In this document: positions 2,860 to 54,527 of the stretch, one piece after another
How positions within the stretch are numbered: the stretch's first letter is position 1
How the letters are laid out: each line of letters starts with the position of its first letter
Assembly (NCBI GenBank): GCA_002238425.1
Contig: MPMJ01000007.1
Location: forward strand, 11,826 to 75,825
DNA length: 64,000 bases
Source of the DNA: SAR202 cluster bacterium bin16
Lineage (GTDB): Bacteria > Chloroflexota > Dehalococcoidia > Lucifugimonadales > Australimonadaceae
Direction: 5' to 3'
Made by a program: the position numbers and the translations under genes
The notes under the pieces: model-generated
Told to the model about the DNA's origin: nothing
Database searches by the model: none
The model's input: only the letters and a program-made list of their open reading frames with translations

Positions 2860-3239
2860 GGCTGCTACTCGATTCGCACGTACTGCTCTGGTTCTTATGG
2901 CAGAGCCCGCTGCTCGGCGCACGTGCCGCCGCCGCTATTGCTGATCCTGACAACGAAGTCTTCGTCAGCGCTGCGAGCATCTGGGAGATCGCGCTGAAGC
3001 GGGCCAAGTCCTTTTTGGATGCCCCGGAAGGCCTGGCTGGCATGGTGGAACAAGCTGGTTTCACGCCCTTGCCCTTGTCCCTGTTCCACGCGGAGCAGGC
3101 GGCAATGCTGCCTATGCATCACCGCGACCCATTCGACCGGATGCTGATCGCGCAGGCGCAGGCGGAGGGATTGACTCTCGTGACGCGGGACGCCCACATC
3201 CGGCGCTACGGTATTCGCACGATGGCGCCCGGCCAGTAG
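2856..3239 (+). CDS. vapC: PIN-domain ribonuclease toxin VapC
   Basis: 127 aa. LLLDSHVLLW...SAASIWEIALK...DPFDRMLIAQA...LVTRD is the typical PIN acidic-residue pattern. Overlaps the antitoxin stop. Confidence 0.85.
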   Translation: MRLLLDSHVLLWFLWQSPLLGARAAAAIADPDNEVFVSAASIWEIALKRAKSFLDAPEGLAGMVEQAGFTPLPLSLFHAEQAAMLPMHHRDPFDRMLIAQAQAEGLTLVTRDAHIRRYGIRTMAPGQ

Positions 3240-44393: not shown

Positions 44394-45551
44394 TTAGTCC
44401 ATCCCGGCGAGCGGCCGGAAGAACTCCCGCAGCTCGTTGGCCAACAGCTCCGGCTCTTCCCATGCGCCGAAGTGTCCGCCGCTCGGCATCAGCGTGTAGC
44501 GCTGGACGTTGTAGGAGCGCTCGGCCCATTCGCGCGGCGGCTGGCTTGAGTCGCCGGGGAATACCGCGAAGCCGGTGGGAACCTCGACCCGCTCGCCCGG
44601 CCCAAAGCGCACCGGGTCCGCCGCCGACTCCTTGTAGAACCGGACGGACGACGCGATCGTCTCCGTGGCCCAATAGATCGTCGCGTTCGTGAGCAGCTCG
44701 TCCTTGGTGAACCGGGCCTCGACGTCGCCCTTGTTGTCGCTCCACTTCCAGAACTTCTCGACGATCCAGGCCAGCATCCCAACGGGTGAGTCGCTGAGCC
44801 CATAGGCCAGCGTCAACGGCTTCGTACGCTGTTCGTGCGAGTACCCCTGCTCGATGGCTTGCCACCGGTCCCGGTGCTCAACGAGCGCTTCCTCGGCTGG
44901 GCTCAGAGGCGCAGACCCTTCACCGAGATACGGGGCAACGACGGTTGCCGACGACAGGTGGATCCCGCTGACATGATCGGTGTGCGCAAGGCCAAGCTGC
45001 GTGGTGACCGCGGCGCCCCAGTCGCCCCCGTGGGCCACGAACCGGGAGTAGCCAAGTCCCTGCATGAGCTCCGTCCACAGCGCAGCTGTACGCTTGGGGT
45101 TCGTGCCCTTCTGCGACGGCCGGTCGGAGAAGCCATAGCCCGGCAACGACGGAATGACGACGTCGAAAGCGTCGGCAGCGTCGCCGCCATGCGCCGCAGG
45201 GTCGGTGAGCAGAGGGAGAATCTCCAACTCTTCGAGGAATGTGCTAGGCCAGCCATGGGTCAGCACGATCGGCAGGGGATGGGGGCCGTTGCCGCGGACG
45301 TGGATGAAGTGGATGCCCATCCCGCCGACCTCGGCCCGGTAGTTGGGCAGCGAGTTCAGCCGCGCTTCCTGGGCGCGCCAGTCGAACCCCGTGCGCCAGT
45401 ACTCTGCCAGCTCGCGGATGTAGTCGAGGTTGGCCCCGTAGTCCCAGCCTGCCCCATCGACCGTGTCCGGCCACCGGGTCCTGCCGAGCCGCTCACGCAG
45501 ATCGTCGAGGACGTCGTCTGTGACATGGATGGTATAGGGCTGGATATTCAC
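44394..45551 (-). CDS. epoxide hydrolase (EHN N-terminal domain + alpha/beta fold)
   Basis: ORF 44394..45773. The in-frame GTG at 45551 gives VNIQPYTIHVTDDVLDDLRERLGRTRWPD, the typical microsomal-type EH N-terminus. HGWPSTF oxyanion motif and GGDWGA nucleophile motif. Confidence 0.85.
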   Translation of the reverse strand: MNIQPYTIHVTDDVLDDLRERLGRTRWPDTVDGAGWDYGANLDYIRELAEYWRTGFDWRAQEARLNSLPNYRAEVGGMGIHFIHVRGNGPHPLPIVLTHGWPSTFLEELEILPLLTDPAAHGGDAADAFDVVIPSLPGYGFSDRPSQKGTNPKRTAALWTELMQGLGYSRFVAHGGDWGAAVTTQLGLAHTDHVSGIHLSSATVVAPYLGEGSAPLSPAEEALVEHRDRWQAIEQGYSHEQRTKPLTLAYGLSDSPVGMLAWIVEKFWKWSDNKGDVEARFTKDELLTNATIYWATETIASSVRFYKESAADPVRFGPGERVEVPTGFAVFPGDSSQPPREWAERSYNVQRYTLMPSGGHFGAWEEPELLANELREFFRPLAGMD

Positions 45552-45699
45552 AGCCCAGAGCTTATAGCAGGCAGCGTGACCCGGCCAGCCGCCTGGATGA
45601 CCAGGCCGAACTGCAGCTTGAGGGTTCGTGTACTCGTACAGGCTGGTTGGCCTCTGGGCGGGGAAGGTACACTGCCCCGGTTCCCCTTTCAGGCGCGCC

Positions 45700-46608
45700 T
45701 TGCTCAACATATTCCTCACCGTCGTACTGCCCATCTTCATCGTCGCCGGCTCCGGCGCGGCGCTGCAGCGCATGCGGCCCGGGGCGCTGGGCTTGCTGGG
45801 GCCTGCAGCGCTCTACATCTTCGGGCCCGCGCTCGTGCTGAACGGCCTGCTGCGGACGCAGCTGCCCCTGGATGTCTCCCTGCGCATCGTCGCGGCGGCA
45901 GCCGTCACCATGCTCGCGATGGTCGCTGTCGCCTGGGTGGTGTCACGGCTGCTGCGGCACGACAGGACGACGGAGAGCGGCTTCATGCTCGCCGGAGCGT
46001 TCGGCAACTCAGGCAACATGGGTATCCCCATCTCGTTCCTCGCGTTCGGCGAAGACGGACTCTCCGTGGCGATCATGGTGTTCGTGACGCACACCTCCGT
46101 CAATTGGCCCGTCGGCATCTACATCGCCGCGCGCGGACGCGCCAGGGGCTGGGCTCCGCTGCTCCAGTCCCTCAGAGCGCCAACGCTCTACGCCGTCCCC
46201 ATCGCGCTGGTCATACGAGGGTTCGACTGGACGATCCCCACGACGCTCGAGAGGCCGATCACCATGATGGCGGACGCGGCGATCCCCGCCATGCTGCTTG
46301 TGCTGGGCTATCAGCTGGCGCAGGGCATCGAGTTCCGGCAGCCGGGCAGCATGACGACGGTCCTTGCTACGCGGCTGATCGCAGGGGCGATGGTCGGCGC
46401 CGGCGTGACGACGCTGCTCGGCCTCGAAGGCGTCGTCCGCAACACCGTCGTGCTCATCGCCGCGATGCCTGCCGCCGTGTTCGTCTCCATCCTCGCGACC
46501 GAGTACCGCATCGTGCCGCGGTTCGTGGCGAGCTCGGTCATCATCGGCACAGTCGCCAGCCTCGTGACGCTGACCGTGGTTATCGGTCTGCTGCAGCGCT
46601 GGGACTGA
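45700..46608 (+). CDS. AEC (auxin efflux carrier) family transporter
   Basis: ORF 45628..46608. The in-frame TTG at 45700 gives MLNIFLTVVLPIFIVAGSGAAL, the typical family N-terminus. About 10 TM helices. Confidence 0.8.
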   Translation: MLNIFLTVVLPIFIVAGSGAALQRMRPGALGLLGPAALYIFGPALVLNGLLRTQLPLDVSLRIVAAAAVTMLAMVAVAWVVSRLLRHDRTTESGFMLAGAFGNSGNMGIPISFLAFGEDGLSVAIMVFVTHTSVNWPVGIYIAARGRARGWAPLLQSLRAPTLYAVPIALVIRGFDWTIPTTLERPITMMADAAIPAMLLVLGYQLAQGIEFRQPGSMTTVLATRLIAGAMVGAGVTTLLGLEGVVRNTVVLIAAMPAAVFVSILATEYRIVPRFVASSVIIGTVASLVTLTVVIGLLQRWD

Positions 46609-46649
46609 CCTCGTGCGGTACCATGCCATCAACCAACGGAGGCGCGCCC

Positions 46650-47510
46650 ATGAAGATCGGAATCTCCTTCCCTACCCTCGAGTTGCACGACCCTGAAGAG
46701 ATGAAGGCGTTCGCGCAGGGCGCGGAGCAGCTCGGTTTCCACCACATGACGGCGCTCGAGCACACCCTGGGCGTCCGTACGAGTGCCAGCTACACGCCGG
46801 ACGTCCACATCCACGAGCCCATGGTGCTGTTCGCATTCCTCGCCGCGGTTACCCGCACGATCCAGTTCGCGAACTCGATACTCATCCTCCCGCAGCGGCA
46901 GACCGTCGTCGTGGCGCGTCAGGCAGCCGAGATCGACGCGCTCTCCGGAGGACGCATACGCCTCGGCATCGGCCTCGGCAGCAACGAGGAGGAGGCCATC
47001 GGCCTCGGAACTGACTTCCACAACCGAGGGGCCCGCGTCGAGGAGCAGATCGAGGTCATGCGGATGCTGTGGACCCAGGACGTCGTCAACTTCGAGGGGC
47101 GTTGGCACCACATCATCGACGGCGGCCTCACGGTGCTGCCCGTGCAGCGGCCCATCCCCATCTGGATAGGCGGAGGGCACGGAAGGCGTCCACTCGAGCG
47201 TATCGGCCGCCTGGCCGACGGCTGGGTTGCCGGCAGCTCCGCTCAGGGTGACGCCGAAGCGCAACTCGAGACCATCCGCAACGCGTCGGAGGCTGCCGGC
47301 CGCCCGCGCGACGCCGTACAGGTCCAGGGGCGTATGCCGCTCGTGGGAGGCGATGCTGAAGGATGGGCCCTGGCCGCCGAGCGCTGGCGTCAACTCGACG
47401 CCACCCATCTGGCGGTCAACACGAGCCGCGGCGGGTTCACGACGGCCGCCGAGCACCTCGCCCTCGCCGAGCGCTTCATGAACGAGGTGGGCAAGGACCT
47501 CGCGGACTAG
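46650..47510 (+). CDS. LLM-class (luciferase-like) flavin/F420-dependent oxidoreductase
   Basis: The in-frame ATG at 46650 lies inside the giant ORF 44835..47510 and is preceded by ACGGAGG. MKIGISFPT...GFHHMTALEH...LDALSGGRIRLGIGLG...PVQRPIPIWIGG. Confidence 0.85.
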   Translation: MKIGISFPTLELHDPEEMKAFAQGAEQLGFHHMTALEHTLGVRTSASYTPDVHIHEPMVLFAFLAAVTRTIQFANSILILPQRQTVVVARQAAEIDALSGGRIRLGIGLGSNEEEAIGLGTDFHNRGARVEEQIEVMRMLWTQDVVNFEGRWHHIIDGGLTVLPVQRPIPIWIGGGHGRRPLERIGRLADGWVAGSSAQGDAEAQLETIRNASEAAGRPRDAVQVQGRMPLVGGDAEGWALAAERWRQLDATHLAVNTSRGGFTTAAEHLALAERFMNEVGKDLAD

Positions 47511-47610: not shown

Positions 47611-47660
47611 CCTTCCCCCTTGATGGGGGAAGGTTAGGATGGGGGTGTACCGCAGGGTTG
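47611..47660 (-). repeat. hairpin repeat, family E, inverted full copy
   Basis: The reverse complement CAACCCTGCGGTACACCCCCATCCTAACCTTCCCCCATCAAGGGGGAAGG aligns with 13831..13880. Confidence 0.7.
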
Positions 47661-47684: not shown

Positions 47685-48242
47685 CTAGACGGGAGCGGCC
47701 TCCGGCAGCGCCTCGCCGTTGAGCGTGAACACGGACGTCGCTTCCATGTTCTGCACCAGCGACTGCAGCGCGTAGCAACTCGACTCCGCCATGTCGACGA
47801 GACGGCGTATGCGCTCAGGCGGCTCGTCCGACTCCACGTTGACGGTCGTCTCGAGTCCCACAGGACCGCCGACGATGGTGCCCGCGAGCGCGGAGCCGTC
47901 GCGGTAGAAGCGCGTCGTCTGTTGCAACCGCACCTTGCTGTAGGCGATGTGGGTCATCTCGCTCAACCGAGCGAGCTGGGTGAGCAGTCAGAATGCGACG
48001 CCCGCCGAGAAATAGGCGAGCGGGGAAGGCGCCGTATCGTCGCCGCCTATACGGGTCCCTTCGTCGCAGATCATCTCGAACGTGCTGCCTGCGCCGCCGC
48101 CGGAGCGGACGCGGGCCAGCTTGCGCTGGCGTTCGAGCGTCTCCGCCTCGACCTCGATGACGATCTCTCGCCGGACGCCGTCCTGGCGAGCAGCGTTCGG
48201 GACGGACTCTCCCGTTTGGACCTTCCTGACGATCTCTTCCAT
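47685..48242 (-). CDS. OsmC/Ohr-family protein with in-frame TGA at 47988..47990 (candidate selenocysteine)
   Basis: ORFs 47988..48242 and 47685..47966 are in the same frame, separated by one TGA and 7 sense codons. The joined product reads ...FEMICDEGTRIGGDDTAPSPLAYFSAGVAF-[TGA]-LLTQLARLSEM...MAESSCYALQSL. AGGAG precedes the ATG at 48242. Confidence 0.7.
47955..47978 (-). promoter_or_regulatory. SECIS-like hairpin downstream of the in-frame UGA
   Basis: The mRNA reads UGA-CUGCUCACC-CAG-CUCGCUC-GGUU-GAGCGAG-AUG. This gives a perfect 7-bp stem, extendable by 2 bp across a G.A mismatch, with apical loop GGUU. The loop starts at nucleotide 23, counting the U of UGA as 1. Confidence 0.55.
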
Positions 48243-48286
48243 GAGCCGCTCCTTCCGATGAGGTTGCGAGCCGTGCTGAGTGAGAT

Positions 48287-48362
48287 TGGAGGCGACGGGC
48301 GGAATCGAACCGCCGAATAGAGGTTTTGCAGACCTCCGCCTTAACCACTTGGCTACGTCGCC
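48287..48362 (-). tRNA. tRNA-Cys (anticodon GCA)
   Basis: The reverse complement GGCGACGTAGCCAAGTGGTTAAGGCGGAGGTCTGCAAAACCTC...GGCGGTTCGATTCCGCCCGTCGCCTCCA forms a cloverleaf. Anticodon loop is CT-GCA-AA and CCA is encoded. Confidence 0.9.
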
Positions 48363-50712: not shown

Positions 50713-50799
50713 TGGTGCGCAGGAAGAGATTTGAACTCTTACGGGACTGCTCCCACTGCCCCCTCAAGACAGCGTGTCTACCTATTCCACCACCTGCGC
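50713..50799 (-). tRNA. tRNA-Leu (anticodon GAG)
   Basis: The reverse complement is GCGCAGGTGGTGGAATAGGTAGACACGCTGTCTTGAGGGGGCAG + long variable arm + AAGAGTTCAAATCTCTTCCTGCGCACCA. Anticodon loop is TT-GAG-GG. Confidence 0.88.
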
Positions 50800-50829
50800 C
50801 CGATTTGCTCCGTTTCCGAAGCGGTGATC

Positions 50830-50906
50830 TGGCAGGAGTGGAAGGATTCGAACCCTCGGCCGGCGGTTTTGGAGACCGCTGCTCTACCAGGCTGAGCTAC
50901 ACTCCT
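50830..50906 (-). tRNA. tRNA-Trp (anticodon CCA)
   Basis: The reverse complement AGGAGTGTAGCTCAGCCTGGTAGAGCAGCGGTCTCCAAAACCGCCGGCCGAGGGTTCGAATCCTTCCACTCCTGCCA forms a cloverleaf. Anticodon loop is CT-CCA-AA. Confidence 0.9.
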
Positions 50907-52503: not shown

Positions 52504-53837
52504 GCTTCGAATTCCTCCCGCATACTCTGTCCATCGAGGTTGCGGCCGATGAAGACGAGCTGATTGCGCCGGGGCGCGTCCCCCCATTCTCGCTCCGGCT
52601 GTCCGTCAAAGAGCATGTGAACCCCCTGGAAAACGAAGCGACGCGAGTCTCCCGCAATACTGATGAAGCCCTTCATGCGGAAGATGTCCACCCCACGCTC
52701 ACTGAGCAGTTTGCTAAGCCAATCGTCGAGCCTTTGGGGATCGCAGTCGCCGTCTCTCTCGATAGAGATCGATCCCACCTCATCGTCGTGCTCGTGCTGA
52801 GCGACCCAGGTCCGGTCGGCCTTGACTGGAACCACCGCTCCATCCGCGTTCCTCAGGTGGAGCTGGAACTCCTCCGCCAGGTGCTGGGCGTAAAGACCAA
52901 ACAGCCCCGGCGTATCGACTTCAAGGAAGAAAGACTTGCTTCCCGGGACATCGAGCCGGAGGTTCACATGCTTGTCGAAGGGAATCTCTCCCCCCGGCTG
53001 AATGATTTCCGCAGGCTCGGCGTACTCCCGGACGCACCACTCCGCACCCTCTCGGAGGGCAGCGTCATCCGTGGCCTGGCCAGACACGACGATCAGCGAC
53101 ATCGCCGGATCGGGTCCTTCGGCAAGCTTGAGTTCGTAGCGGCCGGCATCGAGCGAATAGACCCCCGTCCATTCGAAGGGATACTCCGGCTCGAGGAAGG
53201 TGGGACGACGCTCGAGGACCTCGTTCAGGTTGAAGGCGCCGAGGTCGAGGACAGTGTCGACGGGTACGTTCGCTCGCTCGCTGCGCACGACTCGCGCCAT
53301 TCGGTTCATGCCTCGGAGTCGAGCTTCCAAACTGTCGAGGGCCTCGCCGTTGACGAGGTCCGTCTTGTTGAGGAGGAGAACGTCTGCGAACGCGATTTGC
53401 TCCGTGCTTTCTTTGCTTCGGCCGAGCTGCTGGTTGATGTGGGCCGCATCGACGAGCGTGACGATCCCGTCAAGCGAATACTCCGCACGAAGCTCGTCAT
53501 CCATGAAGAACGTCTGAGCGACCGGCCCGGGATCGGCGAGCCCTGTGGTCTCCACCAGCACATAGTCGAACTTGTCACGGCGCTTATTGAGATTGTTGAG
53601 TACGCGGATCAGGTCTCCGCGCACCGTGCAGCAGATGCAGCCGTTCGACATCTCGAAGACCTCCTCGTCAGCGTTGATGACGAGGGCCTGATCGATGCCG
53701 ACCTCCCCATACTCGTTCTCGATCACGGCGATGCGCTTGCCGTGCTCCTCAGTCAAGATCCGGTTGAGCAGGGTAGTCTTGCCAGAGCCGAGGAAGCCGG
53801 TGAGGATGGTAACGGGTACTCTGCGAGACGTGTTCAT
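52491..53837 (-). CDS. COG0523/CobW-family G3E GTPase (putative metallochaperone) with long inter-domain insertion
   Basis: 448 aa. P-loop GFLGSGKTTLLN, the CxCC metal motif (SNGCICCTV), ETTGLADP, NKTDL, an acidic/His patch HEHDDE, and the CobW_C region (FRMKGFISIAGDSRRFVFQGVH). Confidence 0.88.
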   Translation of the reverse strand: MNTSRRVPVTILTGFLGSGKTTLLNRILTEEHGKRIAVIENEYGEVGIDQALVINADEEVFEMSNGCICCTVRGDLIRVLNNLNKRRDKFDYVLVETTGLADPGPVAQTFFMDDELRAEYSLDGIVTLVDAAHINQQLGRSKESTEQIAFADVLLLNKTDLVNGEALDSLEARLRGMNRMARVVRSERANVPVDTVLDLGAFNLNEVLERRPTFLEPEYPFEWTGVYSLDAGRYELKLAEGPDPAMSLIVVSGQATDDAALREGAEWCVREYAEPAEIIQPGGEIPFDKHVNLRLDVPGSKSFFLEVDTPGLFGLYAQHLAEEFQLHLRNADGAVVPVKADRTWVAQHEHDDEVGSISIERDGDCDPQRLDDWLSKLLSERGVDIFRMKGFISIAGDSRRFVFQGVHMLFDGQPEREWGDAPRRNQLVFIGRNLDGQSMREEFEACLV

Positions 53838-54110: not shown

Positions 54111-54527
54111 GTGTCCATACTCACTCCCGCGATGCAGGCCGCCGTCGGGCACGACGGTGAGTCGCGCACCGCCATCATCGAACGCGGCGCCATTGAGCGC
54201 TTCGCCGCCGCCATCGGCGACGACAACCCCGCCTACCCCGACGTCGCGCCGCCGACCTTCCTGCGCTCCGTCGGCCTCGCCATCCCCACCCTTCCCGACA
54301 GCGAGTCCGTGCCGCGCGTGCTGGACGGCGGCAGTGAGTGGACGTACGGCGAGCCGGTGCGTCCGGGCGACGCCATCACGATCGTCACGCAGATGGAAAC
54401 GCTCATCGAGCGCGAGGGACGCATGGGGTCGATGCTCATCGCCACCTACGTCACCCGCTACACGAACCAGCGCGGCGAACTCGCCGCATCGCAACGCAAC
54501 ACCCTCATAAGGATGCCCGCAGCATGA
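54111..54527 (+). CDS. MaoC-like dehydratase, N-terminal-type hotdog subunit
   Basis: 138 aa with a GTG start. IERGAIERFAAAIGDDNPAY...PPTFL is typical of the FAS1-like/MaoC_dehydrat_N hotdog domain. The stop overlaps the next start (ATGA). Confidence 0.75.
   Translation: MSILTPAMQAAVGHDGESRTAIIERGAIERFAAAIGDDNPAYPDVAPPTFLRSVGLAIPTLPDSESVPRVLDGGSEWTYGEPVRPGDAITIVTQMETLIEREGRMGSMLIATYVTRYTNQRGELAASQRNTLIRMPAA

Follow-up and report, generated by a model that had tools for sequence, protein, structure and literature searches.

A predicted selenocysteine-decoding OsmC-like gene, split at an in-frame TGA by public annotation, in a high-GC Dehalococcoidia genome

The window analysed here is the whole stretch of 64,000 nucleotides (nt) taken from contig MPMJ01000007.1 of SAR202 cluster bacterium bin16, a member of the Dehalococcoidia (Chloroflexota), and all positions are counted from its first letter. 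On the minus strand, directly behind a tRNA-Cys gene, two open reading frames (ORFs) follow each other in one frame, 84 codons up to a TGA and then 100 codons up to a TAG; joined, they encode an OsmC-like product in which the TGA takes the place of a catalytic cysteine, and the TGA is followed by a stable RNA hairpin resembling a bacterial selenocysteine insertion sequence (SECIS) (Table 1). Comparative evidence from homologous loci indicates that 48242..47685 is very probably one gene, whose internal UGA codon would be read as selenocysteine (Sec). The division of a single frame by a single TGA had already been noticed in a first-pass annotation of the window, which left the strand unstated, and it is confirmed here.

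Table 1. Features of the OsmC-like selenoprotein locus (window positions)
Feature	Coordinates	Strand	Remarks
tRNA-Cys(GCA) gene	48287..48362	minus	44 nt upstream of ATG; ARAGORN and Rfam (69 bits)
Shine-Dalgarno-like GGAAGGAG	48249..48256	minus	6 nt before ATG; read directly from sequence
OsmC-like selenoprotein, complete coding sequence (CDS)	47685..48242	minus	185 codons plus stop, predicted Sec at codon 85; start ATG 48242..48240, terminal TAG 47687..47685
Cys59 TGC codon, CDEG motif	48066..48068	minus	third Cys, conserved in most of the subfamily
In-frame TGA, predicted Sec85 codon	47988..47990	minus	first (peroxidatic) Cys column of OsmC/Ohr; motif U-L-L-T (UxxT)
Predicted bacterial SECIS hairpin	47958..47975	minus	7-bp stem CUCGCUC/GAGCGAG, apical loop GGUU (47968..47965)
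Cys156 TGC codon	47775..47777	minus	second (resolving) Cys column of OsmC/Ohr; invariant in alignments
9-bp GC-rich hairpin CCUUCCCCC-AUCAA-GGGGGAAGG	47611..47633	minus	52 nt after stop, between convergent genes

Analysis of base composition revealed a coding signature in both halves of the interval: the G+C contents at the first, second and third codon positions (GC1/GC2/GC3) are 0.69/0.49/0.80 upstream of the TGA and 0.65/0.46/0.89 downstream, in a window whose overall G+C is 66.5%. TGA 47990..47988 is the sole one in the 64 kb with a coding-type pattern on both sides, and a scan of the window for TGA codons flanked by coding-like frames found no second selenoprotein gene; a candidate at 53689 was discarded, its GC1 of 0.32-0.41 not being that of a coding frame. 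The start codon is fixed by the N-terminal sequence MEEIV(R/K)K, which has been conserved from phylum to phylum. TGA also serves as the ordinary stop of 15 of the 51 coding-like ORFs in the window, the others ending in TAG (27) or TAA (9), so that a reassigned genetic code is excluded. The use of TGA as an ordinary stop had been noted at first pass and stands, but the example given then, 54525..54527, is the stop of a merely putative gene, one among several ORFs that overlap there. That TAG should be the commonest stop at this base composition is, in its own right, an odd preference for a high-GC bacterium.

Profile and domain searches were carried out with the joined 185-residue product, Cys being written for the TGA. 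They bear out the initial assignment of this product to the OsmC family: the NCBIfam model NF041052, "OsmC-related (seleno)protein", scores 164.5 bits, the curated cut-off being 95, with positions 2-144 of its 144 aligned to residues 29-176, and the Pfam domain OsmC (PF02566) scores 44.5 bits against a gathering score of 27.5. The UxxT motif corresponds to U85-L-L-T88 of the joined product. A search of the PDB, using as query a profile of the window protein and five database homologues, gave its best match with the OsmC-like protein 3cje (E = 1e-16), followed by weaker ones with Thermotoga OsmC, Ta0195 and the Ohr of Vibrio cholerae (3eer, E = 0.013). In the profile alignments the position of the TGA coincides with the first conserved Cys of 3cje, 1vla, 2onf and Ohr 3eer (AACF in the latter), and Cys156 with the second conserved Cys, that of VCPYS in Ohr 3eer and its equivalent in 3cje. 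Both columns had been proposed in the first-pass annotation, the TGA column by comparison with Escherichia coli OsmC. The second Cys is confirmed and the register of the first agrees with 3cje and Ohr, but the comparison with E. coli OsmC itself did not hold: hhalign of the family profile against that protein returned a probability of 0.5% in a different register, an insignificant alignment, and the assignment of the Cys column thus rests on 3cje and Ohr.

The structural model examined is an AlphaFold2 (AF2) prediction of a homologue having Cys at the column (P0001, 49% identical to the window protein), with a predicted local distance difference test (pLDDT) score of 77.6. Its top 39 Foldseek matches in the PDB are all OsmC/Ohr proteins, 3cje being the first, and the residues matching U85 and C156 lie on two long helices, 84-106 and 152-167. 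The closest solved relative, 3cje (Jann_2040 of Jannaschia sp. CCS1), aligns with the window protein at both catalytic Cys columns, but it has Cys instead of Sec and TDEG instead of CDEG, and it is devoid of the N-terminal extension of about 28 residues found in the window protein. The Cys of the CDEG motif, Cys59, is invariant in the homologue alignment A1, gives way to A, S or G at three loci (L023, L033 and L045) and to T in 3cje, and is not present in canonical OsmC/Ohr. With these canonical proteins (Ohr 3eer; E. coli OsmC, 1qwi) the window protein has in common the fold and an arrangement of two Cys on the two long helices, but the similarity is marginal at the E value reported above for Ohr, with no significant match to E. 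coli OsmC, and the window protein belongs to a different subfamily, COG1765/YhfA-like (PMC9312934).

An OsmC-like selenoprotein family with a UxxT motif was described in 2005 from the Sargasso Sea (Zhang, Fomenko and Gladyshev; PMC1088965), in line with the first-pass remark that OsmC-like selenoproteins have been reported from marine metagenomes, and OsmC-like selenoproteins with UxxT are listed in reviews of 2022 and 2026 (PMC9312934, PMC13188914). The window gene shares with this family the domain, the UxxT motif, the occurrence of Sec/Cys pairs and a SECIS-like hairpin with a G in a small loop; it differs in its origin from a high-GC Dehalococcoidia, in its position directly behind a tRNA-Cys gene and in being split in GenBank. 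As judged by its sequence, the gene is a member of the OsmC/Ohr superfamily and of the OsmC-like selenoprotein family, from which nothing essential differs.

Homologues were collected by scanning a one-genome-per-species collection, which yielded 45 loci. The column under study carries TGA, at exactly this place, in 24 of them and TGT or TGC in the remaining 21; this is the outcome of the orthologue comparison that the first-pass annotation had proposed as a check, and it is the alternation of Sec and Cys codons known for the family. The TGA loci include 14 Dehalococcoidia orthologues with 77-97% identity, further Dehalococcoidia, and members of Thermomicrobiales, Chloroflexia, Acidobacteriota, Binatia and related lineages, and Rubrobacteraceae, the TGA forms thus spanning at least five lineages. 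The Cys forms come from Alpha- and Gammaproteobacteria and Planctomycetes, Proteobacteria making up most of them; one Pseudomonadota metagenome-assembled genome (MAG) (L024) has two Cys-type paralogues on one contig, about 2.5 kb apart and in frames 0 and 2. The context of the column is conserved as AF-[U/C]-L(L/M)T(Q/H).

Homologues that truly end at the TGA were looked for, and this is not what was found: almost all TGA loci have a frame that runs on beyond it for about 100 codons of conserved sequence. The sole exception is a TGA form from a Rubrobacteraceae MAG (L031), in which similarity is lost and the frame ends 54 codons after the TGA, an early end that may be due to a frameshift or to an assembly error. 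Over the 100 codons downstream of the TGA, the ratio of nonsynonymous to synonymous substitution rates (dN/dS) against the 14 close orthologues is 0.05-0.29, revealing purifying selection.

The hairpin described in the first-pass annotation, with its perfect 7-bp stem, is present at 47975..47958. It starts 12 nt after the UGA, its loop occupies nt 23-26 when the U of UGA is taken as nt 1, and two more outer pairs lengthen it to 47955..47978. Folded alone it reaches -10.7 kcal/mol (z = -3.97), a value that 0 of 200 dinucleotide shuffles equalled, and -13.1 kcal/mol with the two outer pairs. Among synonymous recodings of the same peptide the latter energy was attained by only 17 of 5000 when codons were weighted by usage and by 7 of 5000 when they were drawn uniformly; the structure is hence no by-product of the amino-acid sequence. 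Folding had been suggested as a check together with the original observation; it supports the hairpin alone but not a 66-nt segment including the flanks, which is not significant against dinucleotide shuffles (z = -0.65), and the signal is thus that of a local hairpin.

Comparison among homologues revealed that the structure goes with the TGA. Each of the 16 unique TGA sequences reaches -8.2 kcal/mol or lower within nt 11-42 (mean -11.3), whereas ten Cys-type sequences average -4.6 kcal/mol in the same 32-nt span (Mann-Whitney p = 5e-5, not corrected for phylogeny). Every TGA form has GGU or GU at the same distance in its hairpin, whereas the Cys forms are without the hairpin, and G24 is invariant in 15 of 15 unique TGA sequences. 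The stems vary by lineage and stay complementary, as in UUUCCCG-GUU-CGGGAAA, CUCGUGCA-GGU-UGCACGGG and AUUUCCC-GGUACG-GGGAAAU. They occur in two registers, with i+j = 49 in the window's clade and 50 elsewhere, and the covariation test was made on the second group: in its eight sequences 100% of the cells pair and five of the seven pairs change on both sides, against at most 64% pairing in slid controls. A single structure imposed on all 15 sequences gives only 80% pairing, and a MAFFT alignment of the trimmed hairpins was dropped because it placed gaps inside the stems. Within the window's clade there is one compensatory change, C-G to U-A, in L017, and the only common synonymous change sits in the loop, where GGUU becomes GGCU.

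The published model of bacterial SECIS elements calls for an apical loop 3-9 nt long that caps an upper stem of 4-16 bp; a G at loop position 1 or 2, as a rule with G or U next to it on the 3' side; a distance of 16-37 nt from the UGA; and a minimum free energy (MFE) of -7.5 kcal/mol or lower (PMC13188914). The window hairpin agrees with all four of these constraints, having a loop of 4 nt on a stem of 7 bp, G23 G24 U25 U26 as loop sequence, 19 nt (nt 4-22) between UGA and loop, and the energies given above with or without the outer pairs; the TGA orthologues, too, are all below the energy limit. The E. coli fdhF SECIS is similar in lying immediately 3' of the UGA within the CDS and in having GGU at the opening of a 4-nt apical loop. 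The loop distance had been described at first pass as essentially the same, which is nearly so: the fdhF gene of E. coli K-12, when folded, has its loop GGUC at nt 22-25, an offset of 1 nt. The window stem, unlike that of fdhF, is a perfect 7 bp without a bulged U, and the two elements have no similarity in primary sequence. With covariation as its support, the hairpin is predicted to act as a bacterial SECIS, presumably by binding SelB.

What the data show is an intact gene with selection on both its halves, a Sec/Cys pairing and a conserved RNA hairpin. The mechanism that they suggest is the following. The GGUU apical loop would recruit the complex of SelB, GTP and Sec-tRNA(Sec) to the ribosome, so that the UGA at codon 85 would be decoded as Sec and termination would not occur; the insertion of selenium at this codon is proposed from the comparative evidence. 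By homology with Ohr/OsmC, Sec85, on the first of the long helices, would have the peroxidatic role, attacking the hydroperoxide and being converted to a selenenic acid; this would be resolved by Cys156, on the second helix, to form a selenenylsulfide, which some thiol reductant would presumably reduce. The predicted function is hence that of a hydroperoxide reductase of Ohr/OsmC type, with a chemistry deduced from homology. The candidate selenoprotein put forward at first pass is supported by the NF041052 match, the alternation of TGA and Cys codons, the selection downstream, the restriction of the hairpin to TGA forms and its agreement with the SECIS constraints.

Several observations weigh against this interpretation. 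Neither the window nor the sequence flanking 46 related loci gave a tblastn hit (E <= 0.01) to E. coli SelA, SelB or SelD, and no tRNA-Sec was found across the 64 kb or beside the related loci. The covariation comes from few independent lineages, the window's clade contributing the one compensatory pair of L017, and no Rfam family matches the hairpin at gathering or permissive thresholds, the only element found near the gene being the tRNA. The function is derived from homology only, and the nearest solved structure, 3cje, is that of an uncharacterised protein. On the other side, the host lineage lends indirect support: Dehalococcoidia are documented as rich in selenoproteins (PMC13326102), and two Dehalococcoidia MAGs are among the top ten bacteria by selenoprotein count in BSepDB, with 49 and 46.

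In public databases the gene is found in pieces. GenBank reports its 84-aa and 90-aa halves as adjacent "hypothetical proteins", MCY4448960.1 and MCY4448961.1; the identical 84-aa fragment occurs on 22 separate contigs, where the gene is split, and no entry for the joined product with W or X at residue 85 exists in the protein collection searched. When the C-terminal half was searched against a protein catalogue of 1.84 billion representatives, 113 matches were obtained (P0036-P0148), 81 of which are short orphan fragments of 58-123 aa; several of the fragments begin with MLTQ, directly after the TGA, and just one of the 14 best matches is full-length. This suggests that the Sec form of the family is common and systematically mis-called, and among its close relatives the Sec forms found in split condition seem to be more numerous than Cys forms of full length. 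A different distortion is seen in two proteins of the Joint Genome Institute (JGI), P0002 and P0003, which have W at the Sec column. For one of them the DNA (L046, 253..828) carries TGA there, and translation of the gene by table 11 does not reproduce the protein; the W is thus an artefact of an alternative code used by the gene caller. An alternative genetic code was apparently picked at JGI for short contigs, giving full-length proteins that resemble Trp variants.

The split annotation would in itself be accounted for if an ancestral TGC or TGT had become TGA by mutation or by sequencing error, since public gene callers end the ORF at the TGA and list a pair of fragments. Yet the TGA is shared by more than half of the loci, the N-terminal fragment recurs unchanged on so many contigs, the codons downstream are open and under purifying selection, and a structured hairpin accompanies the TGA forms only; the conserved TGA and the downstream selection together rule out a base-call error or a decaying pseudogene, and we give this origin next to no credence. 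The TGA could otherwise be a genuine stop, ending an 84-aa protein, and translation could begin anew at ATG 47957 to give a second protein of about 90 aa, with the hairpin serving for coupling or mRNA stability. An ATG does lie 31 nt after the TGA, and the abundance of short C-terminal halves in the catalogue fits such a second protein, these entries being gene-caller products and not evidence of expression; indeed, the fragments starting with MLTQ reveal that their starts are caller artefacts. The internal ATG, which lies inside or just beyond the hairpin, is lost from TGA forms outside the window's clade, where the peptide GKI replaces SEM, and it has no ribosome-binding site before it, as the place for one falls within the 3' arm of the hairpin. 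Moreover, the Cys homologues are single chains, the OsmC fold requires both halves, and the split would cut within the first catalytic helix, so that two separate proteins are very improbable.

A further possibility is that the UGA is recoded, with the help of the same hairpin, to a residue other than Sec, either Cys by means of a tRNA(Sec)-like tRNA or Trp by near-cognate read-through. The Sec machinery was indeed not seen in the window or around the related loci, and the JGI calls do give W at the column; however, that W derives from the TGA itself, TGA terminates genes normally elsewhere in the window, the hairpin fits a SelB-type SECIS model, NCBI curates the family as a selenoprotein one and the class is known as rich in Sec, which together make recoding to another amino acid highly unlikely. 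That no Sec machinery was seen in this sequence, taken with the tRNA-Cys gene 44 nt upstream in all 14 Dehalococcoidia orthologues, also leads to the idea that the clade couples the gene to the expression of the cysteine tRNA, or decodes UGA in a non-canonical manner, for instance as Cys through a SelB/SECIS-dependent path. No positive evidence speaks for it and a standard tRNA-Cys cannot read UGA, and we regard it as a slim prospect. Decoding of the UGA as Sec in a single OsmC-like gene is the explanation preferred here.

The value of the locus lies mainly in annotation hygiene, the gene and its orthologues being split by automatic callers into two hypothetical proteins. In addition, it offers a clean SECIS example, supported by covariation, from a high-GC Chloroflexota, and one further indication that a Dehalococcoidia lineage may use selenium in its defence against oxidative stress. 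What is particular to this case is the lineage, a clade of high-GC Dehalococcoidia MAGs some of whose relatives bear sponge-style bin names, together with the tRNA-Cys context and the split annotation; the family was already known, and the gene leaves the knowledge of selenoproteins or of OsmC unchanged.

The tRNA-Cys gene that precedes the selenoprotein gene on the same strand is a standard one with an encoded CCA. The adjacency is kept in 14 of 14 orthologous Dehalococcoidia loci (L001-L014, at about 2880..2956), with a 44-nt spacer whose sequence drifts. A scan of the interval between the two genes found no promoter-like site, which makes co-transcription likely, and tRNA and selenoprotein gene are probably carried on one transcript. 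That a cysteine tRNA stands ahead of a gene with Sec in place of Cys is probably a coincidence. On the other side of the gene, the GC-rich hairpin at 47611..47633 belongs to a 96-nt region that folds with z = -2.9; it is without a T run, and was not called by the terminator scan. It is a probable transcript end lacking a U-tract, and possibly a bidirectional one.

The convergent neighbour beyond this hairpin is a luciferase-like gene ending at 47510. The 891-aa ORF mechanically listed at 44835..47510 on the plus strand is an artefact of high GC, overlapping a Mem_trans gene (45628..46608) in another frame; only its last 290 codons or so are a gene, which the Pfam marks on syntenic contigs identify as a luciferase-like monooxygenase. 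Farther upstream, a pair of tRNA genes, tRNA-Trp(CCA) and tRNA-Leu(GAG), lies at 50713..50906 on the minus strand, upstream of a gene of the Ldh_2 family, and in most Dehalococcoidia relatives this pair is syntenic with the block formed by tRNA-Cys and the selenoprotein gene.

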